Assembly: GCA_963763775.1 (NCBI GenBank)
Contig: CAVXPZ010000001.1
Coordinates: 1,344,001 to 1,408,000, forward strand
DNA from: an uncultured Chloroflexia bacterium
Lineage (GTDB): Bacteria; Chloroflexota; Limnocylindria; Limnocylindrales; CSP1-4
Direction of reading: 5' to 3'
Length of the DNA stretch: 64,000 nt
Shown here: positions 15,446 through 26,159 of the stretch, in pieces
Numbering within the stretch: position 1 is the first letter of the stretch
How the letters are laid out: every line of letters begins with the position of its first letter
Translations under genes and position numbers: made by a program
Notes under the pieces: generated by a model
Told to the model about the DNA's origin: nothing
The model's input: the letters and a program-made list of their open reading frames with translations, nothing else
The model's database searches: none

Positions 15446-18400
15446 ATGGCGGAGGCGACGCTCGAGCTCCAGCGCGACAACCCGGAGGCGTACATCCCGC
15501 GCGACCGCCGCCGCGCCCTCGCCGCCGGGACGACGATGCCCGACCGGGTCCACGGGGCCGGCCTGTTCGCCGACATCTCCGGGTTCACCCCGCTCACGGA
15601 GGCGCTGGCCGCGGAGCTCGGGCCGCAGCGAGGCGCCGAGGAGCTGACCGCGGCGCTGGGCCGCGTGTTCCATGAGGTGATCGGCGAACTCGACGGGTTC
15701 GGCGGCGACGTCATCTATTTCTCGGGCGATGCGATCACGTGCTGGCTCGACGGCGACGACGGGACCCGGGCGACGGCCTGTGGGCTCGCGATGCAGGACG
15801 CGATCGCCCGCGTGGGCCAGATCGCGACACCGGGCGGGAACACGGTGACGCTCGCGATGAAGGTGGCGATCGCGGTGGGTCCGGCGCGTCGCTTCGTCGT
15901 CGGGGTGCCGCGCGTCCAGCTCATCGACGTCCTCGCGGGCCATCTCGTCGACGACCTCGCCGAGGCCGAGCATCACGCGGGCAAGGGCGATGTCGTGCTC
16001 GACGCGTCGGCCATGGCGTCCCTGGGCGACCGCGTCGAGCTCGCCGAGGAGCGAGTCGACGACGCGACCGGTCATCGCTTCGGGGTCGTGCGGCGGCTGA
16101 CGGTGGACGTCCCGCGCGCGACCGTCGAGGAGCCGCCCCTGCTGCCCGAATCGATCGTCCGCCAGTGGCTGCTCCCGGCCGTCTACGAGCGGATGCGGAC
16201 CGGTCGCGGCGAGTTCCTCGCGGAGCTGCGCGCCGCCTACCCGCTCTTCCTCCGATTCGGCGGCATCGACTACGACGACGACGACGAGGCCGACGTCAAG
16301 CTCGACGCCTTCGTCATCAAGGCCCAGGAGATCCTCGACGGGTACGGCGGCAACGTCCTCCAGCTGACCCTCGGCGACAAGGGGGCCTACCTGTACGGGG
16401 TCTTCGGATCGCCACTCGCCCACGAGGACGACGCCGCACGCGCCGCCGCCGCGGCCCTCGAGCTGCTGGATCTGGGGTCCACGACAGCGGCCACGGACAT
16501 CCAGATCGGGATCACCCACGGCCGACTCCGGAGCGGCACGTACGGGCACGCGATGCGTCGGACGTTCGTGTGTCTCGGGGACGCGGTCAACCTGTCGGCA
16601 CGGCTCATGTCGGCGGCCCCTCCAGGTCGCATCTACGTCTCGCGGCCGGTCCACGATGCGGCCGGGGACGCGTTCCGCTGGGAGTCGCTGGCGGACCTGA
16701 CGGTCAAGGGCAAGAGCGAGCCCGTCGAGGTGTTCGCGCTGAGCGGCGCGGTCGCGCGGACGTCGCGACGCCAGACGCGATACGAGCTCCCGCTGGTCGG
16801 CCGGCGAGCCGAGCTTCGACGACTCGACGATCGGCTCGATCTCGCGCGGTCCGGCCGCGGGCACGTCATCTCGATCGCCGCTGAGGCGGGCATGGGCAAG
16901 TCCCGGCTCGTCGCCGAGTTCGTCCGGAACGCCCGGCGATCGGGCCTCCAGGTGGCCTTCGGCGAGTGCCAGGCCTTCGGGACGACGACGAGCTACCTGG
17001 CATGGCGCGAGGTGTGGCGGACCCTGCTGGGCGTCCAGGACGGCGCCGACCCGGAGCGGCAGCGCGACGCCATCGAGCGGGCGTTGACCTCGATCGATCC
17101 GGCCCTGCTGGCCCGCGCACCACTGCTGGAATCGGTGGTCGGCGTCCCGATCCCGGACAACGACCTGACCGCGGCCTTCGACCCGAAGCTGCGCAAGGCG
17201 TCGCTCGAGGACCTGCTCTCGAGGTGCCTCGCGAGCCTGGCGACCCGACCGCTGGTGATCGTCCTCGAGGACTGCCACTGGATCGACGAGCTGTCGCGCG
17301 ACCTGCTCGAGGCGCTCGTTCGAGCGTCGCCGGCGCTCCCGGTCTGCTTCGTCCTCGCCTACCGCCCGGCGTCGGCCCCCGGCGGCGACCTCGGGCTGGA
17401 GCGGTTGCCGCAGTTCGATGAGATCGTCCTCAGCGAGCTCGATGCCGACGAGACCCGTCAGGTCATCCGCTCCAAGCTCACGCAGCTGATCGGCGGCGAT
17501 CGCGCGACCCCCGAGTCGCTCGTGGAGCTCATCACGGCCCGCTCCCAGGGCAACCCGTTCTACGTCGAGGAGTTGCTCAACTACCTCGTCACGCGCGGCG
17601 TCGACCCAGGCGACCCGGGAGCGCTCGCCGACCTCGAGCTGCCGGACAGCCTCCAGAGCCTGATCCTCGGCCGCATCGACCAGCTCGACGAGGCGCCGCG
17701 ACGGACGATCAAGGTGGCCAGCGTGCTCGGGCGAGTCTTCAACGCGCCGGTCCTGCCACGCGTGTACCCGGAGATCGGGTCGCTGGACGCCGTCACGCAG
17801 CAGCTCGACCAATTGCGCAGCCTCGACCTCATCGCGCTCGACCGTGAGGCGGAGCAGGCCTACCTCTTCCGGCACATCCTCACGCAGACCGTCGCGTACG
17901 AGAGCATGCCGTTCGCCCTGCGCTCGACGCTCCATCGACGGGTCGGCGAGGACCTCGAGGCCGGTGGCGAGGACGCGATCGAGCGGTCCCTCGACCTGCT
18001 CGCCTACCACTACTGGCACAGCGACGACGACACGAAGAAGCGGTTCTACCTGACCGCCGCGGCGGCCGCCGCCCAGGCCGGCTACGCGAACGCGGCCGCG
18101 ATCGACTACTACGAGCGCCTGACGCCCGCTCCTCGACGGGCGCGAGCGCATCGACGCGTTGCTCAACCTCGGCAAGGTGCTCGAGCTGATCGGCGAATGG
18201 CCGCGCGCCGAGACCGCGGCGAACGAGGCGCTGACGGCGACCGAGACGATCGGCGACGTCGACGCGGAAGGTTGGGCGCACGCCGCGCTGGCCGAGCTCG
18301 CCCGCAAGCAGGGGCAGTTCGAGTCGGCGACCGCGCACCTCGACGCCGCGACCCGACGCTTCGAGGCCGCCGACGACGAAGCCGGTCTCGGACAGGCCCT

Positions 18401-19152
18401 CCACGTCGCCGGCACGGTCGCGGCGCAGATGGGCCGCTTCGACGATGCGCGCCAGCGGTACGAACGGAGCCTGGAGATCCGCCGACGGCTCGGCGACCTC
18501 GCCAAGGTCGGCGCGCTGTACTCGAACCTCGCGATCATCGCGGAGTACGAGGACGCAGCCGGACGAGGCTCGACGACTGAACGAGATGGCGCTGGCGGCG
18601 CGCATCGAGGCCGGGGACCAGATGGGGCATCGGTGTCACGCGGATGAACCTCGGCGCGCTCGCGATGCGACACGGCCAGCTCGAGGAGGGTCGCGCCTCG
18701 GTCGAGGAGGCGCTGCGACTCATGATCGAGGTCGGCGACGCGCTGTTCGCGGCCACGACGCGCGTGCTGGTCGGGAACGCCGCTCGCGACCTCGGCGACT
18801 ACCCGAGGCGCGCGCGTGCAGTACCGAGCGAGCCTGGAAGCCCTGGCCGTCATCGACGACCCGGTGTCCACCGCCGAGGCCCTCGAGGACATCGCGCTGC
18901 TCGCGACCGCGACGGGCGACCACCGGCGCGCGGTCGAGCTCGTCGGGGCCGCTGACGCGATGCGATCCGACGTCGGGTCCGTCGCGTCGGAGTCGCTCGA
19001 GGAGGAGTACGGCGAGAAGCTCGCCCCCAGCGTGGAGGCCCTCGGTCCGGAGGCGGCGCACGAGGCGTCGGAGCGCGGCCGGTCCCTCGACGAGGCCGCC
19101 GCGATCACCCTGGCCGCTGGAGGTCTGTTCGAGCCGGCGCCGACGCGCCTAA
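15446..19152 (+). CDS. Twin class III nucleotidyl cyclase + STAND NTPase + TPR protein, frameshifted
   Basis: FADISGFT, FSGDAI; GDKG, HEDDAARA, GDAVNLSARLM; Walker A AEAGMGKS, Walker B VIVLEDCHW, GNPFY; TPR tail split over frames from ~18130. Confidence 0.88.
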
Positions 19153-19362: not shown

Positions 19363-22300
19363 ATGACGCCGCCCCGGAGCCGCGTCAGCCGCTCGCTGGT
19401 CGCGTTCCTGCCAGTCCTGTTCGTCTTCGGCGCGACCTTCGCGCCCGTCTCGATCAAGGGCGCGCCCGTGGGCGCGGCGCCGGTCTCGGCGGACCCGTTG
19501 CCGGGGTCTGGACCGGCGAGCGGCGACCGGCGGGACCGATCACGGTACGTCACACAGCCGGTACCGGCGGCCTCGCGGAGTTCCACTACAACGCGACCTT
19601 GCGCCGGCACGAGCTCCGCCCGGGTGCCGGTCGGACCTGGACGTTCAACACCCTGGCCGGATCCGGCAGGGCGACGTCCGTCTCGACTGGGCGCTACTCC
19701 GGGTTCCACGCGTACTTCCAGGTCACCGTCGGGCTGACCGTGTTCATCACACGAGCCGGCAACCCGGTCGCGGTCCCGGATCTACGTTGGTCGACAGCGG
19801 CGGCCCGCGACTGCGATCCGCTGCCACCAGCCATCGCGGCGGATTCGCGTACGCCGGCACGACCTACCTCGACGTCCAGGCGGGCGACGACGTACGGCTT
19901 CGCCATGCGCGGGAACAACTGACGACTACGAACCCGATCCTTCAGGGCACCCTCGAGGTCGGCACGAACATCGTCTCGAACGGCAGCTTCGAGCTCGGGC
20001 ACGATGACACCGACCGCCGAGGACGACGCTCACCTCCGCGGTCGACCGCACTGCACCGGCTGGACCGTCGAGCCCGGCGGCGGGCTAGCGACGGGTCAGT
20101 CGACTGGACCGGGACTCGGTGGGAGGCCGCGGATGGCGCGCGCTCGCTCGAGTTGGCTGGCGTCCACCGTCGACGGGCGTCGTGCCATCCAAGACCTCGC
20201 CGACGGTCGCCGGCAGGTCGTATCGGGTCACGTTCAAGTACTCCGCGAACCCGGACCGGCTGATCTCGACCGGCCGACGTGCGGAGTGCGGCACATCCTG
20301 CCGAGGCACGAACCCGGGGTCGCGACGTGATCTTCGGCGGCCAGCTCAGGTTGGCGGCGGCGGACGTCCTTCAGCCGCGACCAACAGCAACGTCCGCGAT
20401 GGAGTGGCGATCGCGCGTCCTACGTCGTCACGGCCTCCAGCGACCACGACGCGCTCACTTCGCCAACACCGACTCTCCGCCCACGGCTGCGGCATCGTCA
20501 TCGACGACGTGTCGTGATGCCGGTCCTGCGGCTCGACTCGGCACCGCCCGAGCCCGACTTCTCCATCGGCGCGGACCCGACGTCCGTCTCGACTCGCCCC
20601 GGGCGAAAGCACGCACCACGACGGTCACAGCGACTGCCGATCAATGGATCGCAGGACATCCGGCGCCTGGACCGTCGCGAACCCCGCGGATAGCGGCGTG
20701 ACCGGCGACTTTCCTCGAGGACGCGCGCACCGAGCGGCACCAACGCCTCCGGCATCTGACGATCTCGGCGACCAGCCCGACGACGGCTCCGGCCCCTACA
20801 CCGTGACCGTCACCGCGACCGAAGGGACGCCACACCCACCACGTCGACATCCACGTGACCGTGGCCGTCGACGGACCCGCGCGCAGGACCCGGCCAGCCT
20901 CACGGTCAACACGACCGCGGATCACGAGGACGACACCGGCTGCACCCAGGGCGACTGCACGCTGCGTGAGGCCATCGACGCTGCCAATGCGTCCTCTGGC
21001 GACAGCACGCGCAACATCTCGTTCGATCTCGGCGACGGGTTCGCACGACGATCCAGCTCTCGGGTGCGCTGCCGTCCATCACCGTCCCGGTCTTCATCGA
21101 TGGCGGGGCGTCGGTCGAAGGCGGCTGCGCGATCCCGACCAGCCCGATCGTGCTGGATGGCTCAGGCAACGAAGGCCACCCGAACGGCCTCACGTTCGTC
21201 GCCGGCTCCGAAGGGAGCACGATCCAGGGCCTGCGCGTCACCGGCTGGGCCGGAGCCGCCATCGCGGCGACCTACGTGCCCACCGTGCTCAGCAATCTCG
21301 TCGTCCAGTGCGACGTCCTCGACCACAACGGATACGGCGTCGACCTGGTGGACACGAGCGGCGCGTCGATCGGCGGGACCGGTAACGGCGGCAACCAGAT
21401 CCACGACAACGGTCAGGGCGGGATCCAGCTCCGCAAGAGCAACGTCGAAGCGGCCGACACGTTCGGCGACCAGTTCGACGGCAACCTCATCTACGACAAC
21501 GACGGCCTCGGCATCGACCTCGGCGGCGACGGCGCCGACGGCCAACGACCCGGGCGACACGGACACCGGCGCCAACGGCCTCTCGAACCATCCGCTCATC
21601 TACAACGCCGAACGTCGCCCGGACGGCACCGGGGTCGTCAACGGGACCCTCGACACGAAGCCGGGCCCGCAGCGGATCACGCTCTACTGGAGCGAGGTCT
21701 GCGACCCGTCGAACCAGGGCGATGGCGCGACCATCCTCGGCACGCTCGACGTCACGTCCAACACCACCGGCACGGTCGACTTCACGGCGAACTTCACGCC
21801 GGGGCCGTCGGATCCGGCGTTCCCGGACCATGGCTACGTCTCCGCGATCGCCACGCCGACCGGCGGCGGCATCGCCCCGGACGGCACGTCCGAGTTCTCG
21901 ACGTGTGTCGCCCTGGGGTCGGGCAACGACTCCTGGCCGAGCGCGGCGGACATCAACGACGGATCCGCGGACGGCGCCATCACGTATGACGGCCAGACCC
22001 GCTGGTACAAGTTCACGGTCGTCCCGAACCAGCAGGTGACGATCGACCTCTCGGCCCTTCCGGCCGACTACGACCTGCTCCTCTTCACCGACATCGCGAG
22101 CGCCTACGACGACCTCACGTCGTCGAACCTGACCAAGGTCTCGGCCGAGTCGTCCGGCAAGGGCGGGAACCTGTCCTTCTCGGGCCGCGGCGGGAACCTG
22201 GCGTTCTCCGGCAAGGGCGGGAACCTCGGCTTCTCCGGCAAGGGCGGGAACCTCGCGTTCTCCGGCAAGGGCGGGAACCTGTCCTTCTCGGGCGACGTGT

Positions 22301-25300
22301 TCTCCGGCAAGGGCGGGAACCTCGTGTTCTCCGGCAAGGGCGGGAACTTGTCCTTCTCCGGGACCGGCACCCAGCCGAAGTACTCGGCGGAGGCGTACTC
22401 GAGCGCGCAGCTGAGCTCGCTGATCGCCTTCTCCGCGGCGGACGGGACGCGCTCCAGAGCAGCTCGTCGGCAACACGTTCAACGACACGGGCGAGCTTCT
22501 ACATCCGGATCTCCGGGCGCGAACGGCGCCTTCGACCCGTCGAGCCTGTTCCACCTGACCGTCGCCGAGTCGCCGACGGCGTGCGACAACGCGACGAACG
22601 ACTTCCACCTCGAGGCGCTGCCGGCCGTGGACACGTCGCGGCAGTTCAGCACGATCATCCTCAGCAATCCCGACGACGGCCTTCCTCAACGGGTACAGCG
22701 CGACGACCTTCCCGACCAAGCTCACCTCGCTGGCGGCCCGGCCCGAGGTCGCCGGCAAGGTCGTGGACATCAGCCGCGAGCCCGCGGATCCAGGACCTCA
22801 TCGCCCAGGCCGACGCCCATCCGAACTGCACGTATGCCAAGAACCTCCTGGCCGACGGCATCAAGGCGATCGTCGATTCGCTACCGGCCAGGCAACCCGA
22901 ACCTGAAGTACGTCGTGCTGGTCGGCGGCGACAACACGATCCCGTTCTTCCGCTACCCGGACACGGCCGACCTCGGCGCGGAGTCGACGTTCTTCCCGCC
23001 GGTCGAGCCGGCCAGCCCGTCCGAGGCCAGCCTCCGCCTGAACAACGTCCTGAGCCAGGACGCGTACGGGGCGGCGACGCAGGTCGTGCACGGCGTGGCC
23101 AGCTTCCCGGTGCCGAACCTGGCGGTCGGGCGCCTTGTCGAGACCGCCTCGGATGCCGCCACCGTGATCGATGCCTATCTGAACGGCACGACCAGCGGCA
23201 CCGGTGCGGTCCCCACCCCGACCCGATCCCTGACGACCGGCTATGACTTCATGACCGATGGCGGCGACGTACGTCGCGGGCAGCTTCGCGAGCGGACTCG
23301 CCACGACCGCCACCAAGGACACCCTGATCAACAACACGTGGACCGCGTCGGACCTCAACACGAAGCTCCTTGGCTCGCGCCACGACCTCGTGTTCCTGGC
23401 CGGCCACTTCAGCGCCGACGCGGCGCTGGCCGCTGACTTCAGCACGGTCCTGACCACGGCGCAGCTCAAGGCCTCGACGACCAGCTTCACGAACACGATC
23501 GTCTTCAGCCAGGGCTGCCACTCCGGCTACAACACCGTCGACGGCGACGCCATCCCGAACGTCACCGCCCAGCTCGACTGGGCGCAGGCGTTCGCCCAGA
23601 AGGGCGCGACCCTGATCGGCGGCACCGGCTTCCAGTACGGGGACACCGACCTCGTCGCCTACAGCGAGCAGATCTACGCGAACTTCGCCGACGAGCTGCG
23701 GACGGGCACCGGGGCGATCTCCGTCGGCCAGGCGCTCATCCGGGCGAAGCAGGACTACCTGCGGCAGACGCCCGACATCGGCGGGACCGACACCAAGGCC
23801 CTGCTCGAATCGACCCTCTTCGGCCTGCCGATGATCAGCGTCAACATGCCGGGGACCCGACTCCCGGTGACGACCACCACCTCGCAGGTCGTCGCGCCGA
23901 CGATCGTCCCGTCCGGGCCGGGCGTGGCCCTGGGCCTCCGGACGTCCCCATTCACCGTGACGCCGACCGGCGCCGATGCGCTCACGTCGAAGACCGGCTC
24001 CGGCGGCACCACGTACCTTGTCGGGCCGAAGGGCGGGGTCAACACCAAGCCCAACGAGCCCGTCCTCCCGTTGATCTCGAAGGACGTGTCGGTCACCGGC
24101 CTGACGCTCCGCGGCGTCGGGTTCATGGGCGGCGCGTATCACGACCAGAGCCCCGTCAACCCGCTCGTCAGCTCGCCGGCGACGGAACTGGGTGGCGCGC
24201 CGACCAGCTTCTCGAGTCCGTACCTCTACCCGACCCGGGTGGCCACGGCCAACTACTACGACGCGCTCGGCAACGGGGCGACGCGACTGCAGGTCACGCC
24301 GGTCCAGCACCAGTCGAGTGGCAACGCCTTCACGCGGCGGATCTTCGACGGACTGGACCTCCAGCTCTTCTACAGCTCGACGAACCCCAGCTGTCACGGT
24401 CGGCAACTTCCGGCCCGCGCTCGCGGCCGCGCCGTCCATCCTCGACACCACCGCGACCGACAACGGCGCCGGGGGGATCCGGTTCGATGCGCATGTCGCG
24501 GTCGACCCGGCGGCCGGCATCCAGGACGTCTGGATCGCCTACACCTTCGGGACGCGATGGGACTCGATCCACCTCACCCTCGACCCCGCCGATCCGACGC
24601 ATTGGAGCGGCGTGCTGACGCATTCGTCGGCTGGCCTGAAGTACGTCATCCAGTCGGTCAACGGCGTCGGCATGGTGTCGCTCGACGCCAACGGCGGTGC
24701 CTTCTACGGCATCGCGCAGCCGACCGCCGTCACGCATCCCACGACGCTGGCCGTCCACGCGGCGGCCACCCATGGCGTCTTCGGCTCGACGGTCAGCGTG
24801 ACCGCCGACCTCAGCGGGACCGGGAACATGAGCGGCAAGGCCATCCAGTTCGGCCTCGGCGGCGCGTCAGCGACCGGCACGACCGACAGCAGCGGGCACG
24901 CGTCGGCGACGCTCGCGCTCAACTCCACGCCGGGGGCCTACTCGGTCACGGGCGTCTTCCAGGGTGACACCGCCAACGACCCGTCGTCCGATGTCACGCC
25001 GTTCACGATCGACAAGCTCGGCACGACCATCGCCTTCACCGGCAGCGCGACCAGCGGGCCGGTGAGCACGGACAGCGGCGTCGTGGCGACCCTCAAGGAC
25101 GCCAACAACAAGGCGATCGCCGGGCGGACCGTGTGGTTCGTCGTGACCGACGGCGGCGGCAACGCCGTCTCGCGATCCGTGCTGACGAGCAGCCTGGGCC
25201 AGGCGAAGCTCGGCGTCATCGGGCTCCCCGCCGGGTCGTACACGATCGCCGCCTCCTTCGGCGGCCCGGTGACCCTCCAGCCCGGTTCGGTCCATATCGA

Positions 25301-26159
25301 CCTGACCGACACCACGTATGGAACGTCCACGGCGACCCTCACGCCCTACGCGATCACGAAGAAGGCCGCGACGATCGGCTACACCGGGAACCGCTTCTGG
25401 TCCGCGGGCACCGGCACGACGGCCAGCGTCCTGTTCACCGGCCAGGTCACGCCCGCCGTCGGCGGGACGCTCCCGGCCAGCAACGTCGTCGACTTCCAGT
25501 ACTTCAGCTCGGCGACGCCGACCGTCAAGGCCGGCGACTGCGTCGGCACCATCGACGACACCGGTCTCGCGACCTGCACCAAGGCACTCGGCCTCGACGA
25601 CTGGATCGTCGTGATGACCATCCCGGCCACGAACGGCTACTACACGGCCCCGGACGCCGACTCCGTCGTCGTCACCGTGTACCAGACCACGGCCGCGAAG
25701 TACGCGACCGGTGCCGGCCACGTGATCGACCCGAGCACGAACAACATCCCGGTCAAGGTCTCTCCGACCAAGAACAAGGGCACGTTCGGGTTCGCCGTCA
25801 GCTACAAGACCGGCACGACGCCGCAGGGCATCGCGATCTACTCGTTCCGCGGCAACGACGGCTACGACTACATCTTCACCACCACGAGCTGGACTGGCGG
25901 CGGCCTCTCCTTCGGGACGAGCGCCACCACCGCGTCGTTCAGCAGCAAGTGCGCGGTGACGGTCATCAATCCGGCCACACGCAAGGTGGTGTCCGGATTG
26001 GGCGGCACGAACTTCACGTGCCGGTATGACGTGACCGACGGTTCCACCGACAAGTTCGCGATGAGCGCCTATACATCGACCGGCGTCCTGTACCACCAGG
26101 TCGGCACCGCGTCGAGCCAGATCGCGATCGGCTCCGGCGGGATCGTCGTCAAGAAGTAA
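19363..26159 (+). CDS. Giant secreted multidomain protein: DUF642/choice-of-anchor C, CSLREA, beta-helix, PPC-like, 9-aa repeat, C25 gingipain-like peptidase, Ig-like; many frameshifts
   Basis: Signal peptide; NIVSNGSFE/GSVDW/WEAADG; VNTTADHEDD..CTLREAI; NDPGDTDTGANG; ADYDLLLF; LKYVVLVGGD, AVGRL, FLAGHFS, FSQGCHSG; ends VVKK*. Confidence 0.75.
22153..22356 (+). repeat. In-frame 27-bp tandem repeat, 7 copies of SG(K/R)GGNLxF plus a 15-bp SGDVF insert
   Basis: tccggcaagggcgggaacctNNNNttc-like units at 22153, 22180, 22207, 22234, 22261, 22303, 22330. Confidence 0.95.

Follow-up and report, generated by a model that had tools for sequence, protein, structure and literature searches.

A nine-residue SGKGGNLxF repeat next to a C25-like peptidase domain and its counterparts at the same loop of a large protein family

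Results

The SGKGGNLxF array lies within a large gene for a multidomain protein

We analyzed a 64,000-nucleotide stretch of DNA (hereafter, the window; contig CAVXPZ010000001.1, positions 1,344,001 to 1,408,000) from an uncultured Chloroflexia bacterium. Its + strand carries a gene of ~6.8 kb (19363..26159, with the stop codon ending at 26159) for a secreted multidomain protein, delimited by three-frame translation, the list of open reading frames (ORFs), and tblastn with an intact homologous protein from genome G035. Inside this gene, ahead of a divergent cysteine peptidase domain, lies a tandem array of nine-residue units of the form SGKGGNLxF. We compared this array with its homologs and conclude, with little room for doubt, that it belongs to a repeat array carried by one particular loop throughout a large protein family.

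Read directly from the sequence, positions 22153-22356 of the + strand comprise SGKGGNLxF seven times, in units of 27 bp, and SGDVF once, in a unit of 15 bp. Five 27-bp units come first (22153..22287; SGKGGNLSF, SGRGGNLAF, SGKGGNLGF, SGKGGNLAF, and SGKGGNLSF), followed by SGDVF (22288..22302) and two more 27-bp units (22303..22356; SGKGGNLVF and SGKGGNLSF). A degenerate final unit, SGTGTQPKY (22357..22383), is akin to the SGTGQKF and SGTGQRF units of relatives in alignment A1. The units listed in the original prediction were exact, and its end point, 22362, takes in the SG that opens this ninth unit. Tandem Repeats Finder recovers the 27-bp units at a period of 27 (5.2 copies, score 198) and at a period of 54 (score 227), and the repeat far exceeds chance. 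The array stays in frame and free of stops, although the surrounding gene switches frame often. We also considered an 88-amino-acid (aa) ORF on the - strand (22104-22370, reading PEKDRFPPLPEN...) and rejected it as a gene, a mirror artifact of the array, because the + frame runs into conserved flanks that are common to an intact relative, P0123, and to the whole family.

Five of the nine codons read the same in all seven full units (GGC, GGC, GGG, AAC, and TTC). Codon 1 is TCC in six units and TCG in one, codon 3 is AAG in six and CGC in one (the K/R difference), codon 7 varies among CTG, CTC, and TTG, and codon 8 encodes S, A, G, or V. This codon table agrees with the earlier observation that variation is limited to synonymous sites, one K/R swap, and one variable residue. 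The window taken alone is nevertheless weak evidence for selection on the peptide, because recent duplication or homogenization would look alike.

A tandem array occupies the same loop across the family

A word-based search with a 303-aa array-bearing piece of the window identified P0123, an intact protein of 1010 aa that is 88% identical over the aligned part. P0123 repeats the layout of the window: five 9-mers, SGDVF, two 9-mers, and SGTGTQPKY. The two arrays differ only by an R-to-K change in unit 2 and a G-to-S change in unit 3.

Genome searches found homologs of the array-bearing piece in 6 of 61 relatives and homologs of P0123 in 27 of 131 genomes of the genus. The G035 protein (P0001, 1760 aa, intact) has ~18 copies of (S/A)P(S/A)VF, with one SPDAY interruption, at the exact position of the window array. 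Arrays stand directly after LPADYDL...LSAE in ten relatives from the genus (G035, G015, G081, G101, G153, G099, G113, G068, G119, and G030). With the G035 core as query, 1353 proteins matched at E<=1e-5 among 8000 scored candidates. A phmmer search with P0123 against 1.84 billion 50%-identity representatives returned 2931 matches at E<=1e-3, 2304 at 1e-10, and 1248 at 1e-30.

To describe the arrays, we surveyed 259 family proteins by scripted array detection between two anchor motifs, and 206 had a detectable array. Periods of 5 (196 proteins) and 10 (8 proteins) account for all but two of these, namely P0123 with period 9 and P0130 with period 8; an array has between 2.9 and 30 copies (median 17). 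We inspected 47 of the 53 proteins that the survey missed: all 15 that cover both flanks carry arrays, and the others are N-terminally truncated or have no end motif. A tandem array is therefore present at this loop in every examined homolog that covers it, as emerges from the comparison of the equivalent segment that the original prediction had proposed. The commonest units are SPSVF (61 arrays), SPSAF (30), SPSTF (7), and SPDAF (6), and further ones include APDQW, SGAAW, SPSIY, TPEMF, and IPSAF. Nearly all consensus units end in F, Y, or W; the exceptions are SPGAP, MEISP, SPSML, and PRARS. A 6-mer, YIGNPA, forms 18 copies with an 18-bp period in G029 (L039 2878-3202) and also occurs in G012 (L034). 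We noted that G029 and G012 represent a more distant paralog or ortholog group, and that in both assemblies the YIGNPA array reads in three frames owing to small indels within it.

Units of 5, 6, 7, 8, and 9 residues thus share one homologous loop, and period 9 is confined to the window and P0123 among the proteins surveyed. The loop leaves a beta-sandwich after the strand LPADYDLxxF, passes a conserved helix (..DLTKLSAE..), and continues into 3 to 30 units, each of which ends in an aromatic residue that is almost always followed by Ser, Ala, or Thr and usually then by Pro or Gly. It re-enters the sandwich through a second conserved helix (..AYSSAQ.RSL..). In alignment A1, the arrays of the window and P0123 fall at precisely this position, between LPADYDLxxF/LSAE and AYSSAQ.RSL. 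The window units end in F and continue with S-G, as the aromatic-then-Ser rule of the family arrays has it, and depart from the five-residue form of the majority: they are nine residues long, and SGDVF alone has five.

The conserved core consists of a sandwich of the collagen-binding or pre-peptidase C-terminal (PPC) type with its array, the peptidase, and Ig-like domains. We observed it joined to varied ends: DUF642/choice-of-anchor C, CSLREA beta-helix, Kelch propellers, VWA, delta-60 repeats, and RTX repeats. The G035 protein ends in a PxKF domain (137 bits), and the C-terminal 589 residues of the window protein have no NCBIfam match. NCBIfam holds no model for the PPC-array-peptidase core and names only the variable ends (choice-of-anchor C, CSLREA, and PxKF). 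Literature searches, judged from titles and the opening parts of abstracts, found nothing on this array. The NCBI names of P0026-P0083, whose cores are 62-71% identical to the G035 protein, span several phyla (Candidatus Limnocylindrales/Limnocylindria, Burkholderiales, Casimicrobiaceae, Mycobacteriales, Gaiellaceae, and Acidobacteriota), which suggests horizontal spread or mis-binned metagenome contigs.

Repeat units keep their peptide while their codons diverge

The 5-mer arrays of relatives allow peptide and codon conservation to be told apart. The G035 array has 18 units in 12 DNA versions that encode 3 peptides, the G153 array has 17 units in 11 DNA versions that encode a single peptide, and the G113 array has 18 units in 10 DNA versions that encode 3 peptides. 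Serine in the G035 array is encoded by TCG nine times, AGC six times, and TCC and AGT once each (10 TCN and 7 AGY). TCN and AGY codons occur at the same Ser position within one array at four loci: L008 (G035), L015 (G153), L022 (G113), and L027 (G068). Units that encode the same peptide are consequently separated by changes spanning up to two or three bases. Because the units are identical in peptide yet synonymously divergent, including Ser TCN/AGY, their sequences indicate purifying selection on each unit rather than recent slippage. The proposal of selection on the peptide thus gains its footing from the layout shared with P0123, from the arrays of homologs, and from the synonymous divergence of the 5-mer arrays, and draws little from variation in the window.

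These data also bear on whether the array is a functionless low-complexity expansion, made by replication slippage in a tolerant loop and here sitting in a decaying pseudogene. Copy number and unit length vary greatly among homologs, and the window units are nearly identical in DNA, with five of nine codons invariant, as such an expansion would produce. Peptide-identical units with scrambled synonymous codons, TCN/AGY serine included, are however the opposite of recent slippage, the array is kept in every examined homolog covering the loop, and P0123, 88% identical, preserves the layout of the window. Taking the state of the gene into account as well (see below), we regard slippage without function as very improbable.

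Exact conservation of the motif would also fit recognition by an enzyme. The units might be acceptor sites for O-glycosylation of Ser/Thr beside Pro/Gly, or for aromatic cross-linking, in an extensin-like, decorated surface loop. Nearly all units have Ser (or Thr/Ala) right after the aromatic residue with Pro or Gly adjacent, and 7 of 17 domain segments have sub-threshold matches to Extensin_1 (26-31 bits against a cut-off of 105). These matches lie far below threshold, however, and reflect composition. Moreover, Ala replaces Ser in whole arrays (APSAFAPSAF in G101; APDAF and APGAF), so that Ser is not an essential acceptor everywhere, and no modifying enzyme was seen beside the gene, in a neighborhood for which no dedicated search for one was made. 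Modification as the role of the array seems to us no better founded than slippage.

The array is a predicted disordered loop of a PPC-type sandwich

The sequences on both sides of the window array belong to one domain. Its N-terminal half (21907..22152, + strand) contains the stretches RWYKF and LPADYDLLLF and, running into the array, a helix (TSSNLTKVSAES); it aligns with P0123 residues 1-82, which have a predicted local distance difference test score (pLDDT) above 90 in AlphaFold2. Its C-terminal half (22384..22590, + strand; SAEAYSSAQLSSLIAFSAADGT / APEQLVGNTFNDTGELL / ...ANGAFDPSSLFHLTVAESPTAC) is intact in P0123, where it is modeled with pLDDT 78-95; reading it in the window requires frame changes near 22439 and 22500-22513. 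We modeled the fold on P0123, 88% identical, because the C-terminal half is frame-broken in the window. AlphaFold2 was given P0123 1-233 with 18 aligned sequences, as well as the G035 domain; both alignments were shallow (17-18 sequences).

In the P0123 model, the two flanks together form a beta-sandwich (pLDDT 90-95), and the loop has helices at its base (63-68, 72-83, and 161-171). Foldseek against the PDB places the collagen-binding domains of ColH and ColG and the PPC domain of Bacillus anthracis collagenase at the top (template modeling score normalized by target, 0.72-0.78 for single domains; E 7e-4 to 2e-3), with 3jqw_C, 5iku, 5sv5, 1nqd_A, and 2o8o_A as the best matches, and the modeled sandwich superposes on these solved PPC/collagen-binding domains. 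Pfam PPC (PF04151) matches 10 of 17 domain segments in alignment A2 and 8 of 18 in A1 at E<=0.01 (29.1 bits for the G035 segment, where the cut-off is 25.9), and matches neither window 21544-22452 nor P0123 1-233. The array itself (P0123 residues 77-152) has pLDDT 32-40 and no secondary structure. The G035 5-mer domain behaves likewise, its array residues 73-155 having pLDDT 38-46 and no strands. We take the low pLDDT as predicted disorder, and the array is probably disordered or flexible rather than a fixed solenoid.

The original prediction had offered an ordered Gly/Asn stack as one possibility. The array would then be a beta-solenoid (like a pentapeptide repeat or an RTX roll), a long beta-hairpin, or a cross-beta stack that serves as a rigid spacer. 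Several features are in keeping with order. The periodicity is perfect and places a hydrophobic or aromatic residue at regular intervals, and exact units under synonymous divergence fit a structural constraint. The SQSIF array of P0120 passes the cut-offs of Pentapeptide and Pentapeptide_3, and Pentapeptide_4 matches 3 of 17 segments at E<=0.01. GNLSF in the window resembles the A(D/N)LXX pentapeptide consensus, and a Gly-rich unit of nine residues recalls the RTX nonapeptides. Yet lengths of 5, 6, 7, 8, and 9 residues at the same loop, in ~3 to 30 copies, do not fit one conserved solenoid geometry, and AlphaFold2 predicts no ordered structure for either the 9-mer or the 5-mer array (pLDDT 32-46 and no strands). 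The P0123 domain has no Pfam family, and PF00805 is found in only 1 of 17 segments. The pentapeptide fold requires a small residue two positions before the aromatic, whereas many units have Asp, Glu, or Gln there (SPDAF, SPEAF, and SGQAF); the window unit also has no counterpart of the Asp of the RTX motif. An ordered stack thus appears improbable, and the solenoid and amyloid proposals are not supported by the comparison.

The neighboring domain is a distant C25-like peptidase

Downstream of the sandwich, positions 22590..23870 (+ strand) encode a divergent C25-like (clan CD) cysteine peptidase domain, indicated by a sub-threshold match to Pfam PF01364 and by conserved His and Cys residues, and broken by frame changes near 22667, 22776, 22885, and 23260-23309. 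Over 22780-23270, PF01364 scores 18.7 bits against a cut-off of 23 (E 0.0011). The same family matches 6 of 20 homologs at E<=0.01 (best E 1.1e-13); P0123 has no match, and a search of the window's own genome (G000) gave none either, nor did its controls. PDB sequence searches with phmmer (P0123) and with a 20-sequence profile returned no peptidase structure, the only phmmer match being an antibody chain (E 0.23). The conserved His (23405-23407, LAGHFSA) and Cys (23516-23518, SQGCHSGY) of the window lie ~1.1 kb downstream of the array, which is thus upstream of the protease domain as proposed. Their equivalents in P0123, H498 and C535, are invariant in 20 sequences and, like the residues around them, at least 97% conserved in 88. 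From their motif and order, His and Cys probably form the catalytic dyad.

We compared the catalytic region of 88 sequences to see whether the peptidase changes along with the charge of the units. Four members form a clade whose long units carry Lys or Arg (the K/R clade), and they differ consistently from the other 84 at four columns only (T351, M447, Q533, and L580 in P0123 numbering), with no gain of an acidic residue at any of the four. Residue 533 (window ~23510-23512) immediately precedes the conserved Gly-Cys; all four K/R-clade members have Gln at this position, against Ala in 85% of the 84 others, and this is the only clade-specific change near the presumed catalytic Cys. The pocket thus shows no sign of covariation with unit charge in this alignment, a weak test in that the K/R clade is a single lineage.

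These comparisons weigh on the idea that the array is a tethered bait, a pseudo-substrate, or an autoprocessing tract. On this view, the units would be bound or cleaved by the C25-like peptidase, on the C-terminal side of Lys/Arg in this lineage or of the aromatic residue throughout the family, and the tract would thereby confer latency or release peptides. The array ends ~70 residues before the peptidase domain starts, is predicted to be accessible and disordered, and has a strict ...F-S-P/G... pattern across units that resembles a repeated recognition site. The premise of one basic residue per unit holds within the clade of the window (SGKGGNLxF, SGTGQKF, SGKGQQF, SPTGQRF, and SGGTNTKF). Most family arrays, however, have no basic residue at all (SPSVF in 61, SPSAF in 30, SPSTF in 7, and SPDAF in 6 of 206), and many have Asp or Glu. 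Because most arrays are without Lys/Arg while the catalytic core is near-invariant, a Lys/Arg bait is not general, and the suggestion of an autoprocessing tract or a source of 9-mer peptides finds no support. The array is furthermore a loop of a folded domain, whose flanks would stay together even if the loop were cut. Finally, specificity for Arg/Lys is known, to our knowledge, for gingipains only, and with a domain so distant from them that it falls short of the PF01364 cut-off, this specificity cannot be transferred. We consider a bait role improbable, about as much so as an ordered stack.

The 9-mer probably arose from a 7-mer and a conserved 5-mer

The nearest relatives of the window lineage have 7-mers with one basic residue per unit: SGTGQKF in G081, SGKGQQF/SGKGQAF in P0131, and SPTGQRF in P0132. 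All three arrays retain a central ...GDLGF-SGDVF..., and P0130 has an 8-mer, SGGTNTKF, again with one basic residue. Comparison with locus L013 and with P0130, P0131, and P0132 identifies the SGDVF of the window, on sequence grounds, as the counterpart of the conserved SGDVF in these 7-/8-mer arrays; it is probably also the counterpart of the SPDAY unit of 5-mer arrays. Aligning P0131 (...SGKGQQF-SGDLGF-SGDVF-SGKGQAF) with the window (...SGKG----GNLSF-SGDVF-SGKGGNLVF) suggests how SGKGGNLxF came to replace the usual 5-mer in the window lineage. The 9-mer was most likely born at the junction of a 7-mer of the SGKGQQF type and the conserved 5-mer GDLGF, in a fusion that looks like a 12-bp deletion. 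The new unit would then have been amplified on both sides of the retained SGDVF.

The host gene is frame-broken in the window

The proposed start of the gene at 19363 gives an N-terminus that resembles a signal peptide (MTPPRSRVSRSLVAFLPVLFVFGATFAP...). The variable N-terminal modules include a right-handed beta-helix segment (21150..21560, + strand), which at 25.0 bits narrowly misses the Pfam PF13229 cut-off of 25.9 (E 1.6e-5). At the other end, Ig-like domains of the Big_1 and Big_3_5 types run to the stop (24390..26156, + strand; PF02369 at 35.8 bits with a cut-off of 34.9, PF16640 at 25 bits, below its cut-off), preceded by a frame change near 24392-24393 when P0123 is mapped onto the window. 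P0123 reads unbroken through the second half of the sandwich and the peptidase domain and so gives the proper frame. Three-frame translation and this mapping reveal at least seven frame changes between 21.9 and 24.8 kb, and further ones upstream; a frame plot of G+C content at third codon positions was too coarse for counting breaks per gene.

These breaks are the remaining point in favor of functionless slippage in a decaying gene, all the more since rpoB of the same assembly (4 contigs, 87% complete) is intact, with an open frame of 1184 aa. The gene broken in this organism may thus be a pseudogene. Two observations point the other way. The neighboring regulator gene is also broken, and a short-read contig, X1, lacks the one extra base that the window has at 24392 and stays in the frame of P0123, so that the breaks may be assembly errors. 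X1 comes from a related strain in a soil metagenome run (177 nt, depth 3.8, ~96% identical) and gives a weak hint of an assembly error at 24392. In the read check, runs shared 0.05-0.11 of sampled words, and the four that were assembled gave short pieces, none over 21900-22403. The frame breaks reflect either local assembly error or a decaying locus.

No paralog was found in the same genome with the 303-aa array-bearing query. The upstream neighbor, a regulator-like gene (15446-18802, + strand), contains ~3 frame changes and, on visual inspection, may encode a signal-transduction protein of the cyclase/ATPase/TPR type. This large gene has a counterpart in the same place, directly upstream of the peptidase gene, in G030 (L011, G030:C1 802-6024). 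The two regulator-like genes share 67% identity across 900 residues, and synteny thus extends to the gene pair.

Discussion

A possible surface for multivalent contacts

Our favored, though still tentative, reading is that the 9-mer is a long-unit form, specific to this lineage, of the loop array found throughout the family, carried by a PPC-type sandwich directly N-terminal of a C25-like peptidase. The array would be an intrinsically disordered closed loop of ~80 residues, in which evenly spaced aromatic "stickers" are parted by small Gly/Ser/Pro/Asn "spacers". Its composition and position suggest that it may give the binding domain beside the peptidase a multivalent, low-affinity contact surface. 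Candidate partners are polymeric substrates, the surfaces of particles or envelopes, and further copies of the same protein. Multivalent binding or tethering of this kind is possible rather than probable as the function of the array; cutting by the peptidase or folding into a stack is less likely still.

Several points weigh against this reading. First, the proposed binding role is drawn from composition and position alone. Second, aromatic stickers are not universal, since rare arrays have no aromatic residues (SPGAP in P0248, MEISP in P0204, and SPSML in P0119). Third, exact identity over up to 30 units is stricter than is usual for passive linkers, and could mark a recognized motif, such as a site of modification, a subsite for a protease, or an ordered repeat that AlphaFold2 would have missed with its shallow alignments. 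Fourth, the SQSIF array of P0120 scores 38.2 bits against 20.2 and 35.6 against 27 with the Pfam Pentapeptide models. To these is added the broken state of the window copy beside an intact rpoB.

A bolder version, which we think unlikely, is that the family has a new bacterial extracellular sticker-spacer module, that is, a disordered loop with two helices at its base that uses Phe, Tyr, or Trp for reversible multivalent assembly. Such a module would capture polymeric substrates, adhere to particles or envelopes, or drive gel-like self-association of giant surface peptidases, and each lineage would tune the length of its units (5 to 9) and their charge (none, Asp/Glu, or Lys/Arg). Bolder even than this is the notion that a clan-CD peptidase with a novel preference for aromatic residues at P1 has its tethered pseudo-substrates in these units.

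Whichever role applies, the window repeat leads to a conserved trait, for which we found no description, in a very large family of giant secreted proteins that bear a peptidase; some of the NCBI hit names are those of soil and peat bacteria from several phyla. The array belongs among the tandem low-complexity inserts of secreted multidomain proteins, where its constraint is unusual and the 9-mer is rare. What sets it apart is that it is kept at one loop, that its peptide is copied exactly while codons drift, and that length and charge shift between lineages. This pattern of constraint is atypical of ordinary linkers and suggests a sequence-specific role beside a cysteine peptidase. Should that role be binding or self-assembly, bacteria would possess an extracellular equivalent of aromatic sticker-spacer regions; should it be to regulate the peptidase, the array would represent a new kind of latency device. 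In terms of annotation, the "Extensin" and "Pentapeptide" tags that Pfam assigns at this loop are composition artifacts or borderline matches, and reasoning from Lys/Arg holds for one small clade only.

Comparison with known systems

The closest structural parallel is the collagen-binding/PPC domain of collagenases (PF04151; 3jqw, 1nqd, and 5sv5): the flanks of the array model as one such beta-sandwich, and in both cases the partner is a secreted peptidase. Here, however, the domain is N-terminal of the peptidase and is split by a helix-array-helix insertion of ~60 to 170 residues. The PPC matches listed from the PDB (96-121 residues, 9-12% identity) are too short for such an insertion.

The peptidase shares with C25 (gingipains) the PF01364 match in 6 of 20 homologs, a large secreted multidomain setting with Ig-like domains, and the sequence of His then Cys (GHF ... 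GCH) that is expected for clan CD. It differs in that the window fragment stays below the PF01364 cut-off and PDB sequences are beyond the reach of phmmer and profile searches. We know of no tandem array of this kind in gingipains, and our literature searches turned up none.

Pentapeptide repeat proteins (PF00805) fold as a right-handed quadrilateral beta-helix. Most family arrays have the same strict period of five residues with Phe fixed, and SQSIF of P0120 is above the cut-offs. The window period of 9 and the periods of 6, 7, and 8 in homologs depart from this, as does the position two before the aromatic, often Asp, Glu, or Gln; neither P0123 nor its domain has a Pfam match to this family, and AlphaFold2 predicts no beta-helical fold. 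The RTX nonapeptides (PF00353; consensus GGXGXDXUX, which contains Asp) are similar in their Gly-rich unit of nine residues with one large hydrophobic residue. SGKGGNLxF differs by having no calcium-binding Asp, and its relatives at the same site use units of 5 to 8 residues. We rejected an RTX-like reading on the combination of no Asp, no PF00353 match for P0123 or its domain, and no predicted beta-roll. We likewise rejected an extensin-like assignment (PF02095), for which the G035 array scores 26.3 and 31.3 bits against 105 and the window lineage has no match.

The last comparison is with FG-nucleoporins, low-complexity aromatic-rich kinked segments (LARKS), and elastomeric Pro/Gly pentapeptides. 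These have in common with the family arrays spaced Phe, Tyr, or Trp, spacers of Ser, Gly, Pro, Asn, and Gln, predicted disorder, and variable copy number. The likeness is not one of homology and would lie only in the multivalent weak contacts that we propose for the array. Those systems are eukaryotic, intracellular or structural, and built of degenerate repeats, whereas the arrays described here are exact copies, bacterial and extracellular, in a loop that is closed within a folded domain.

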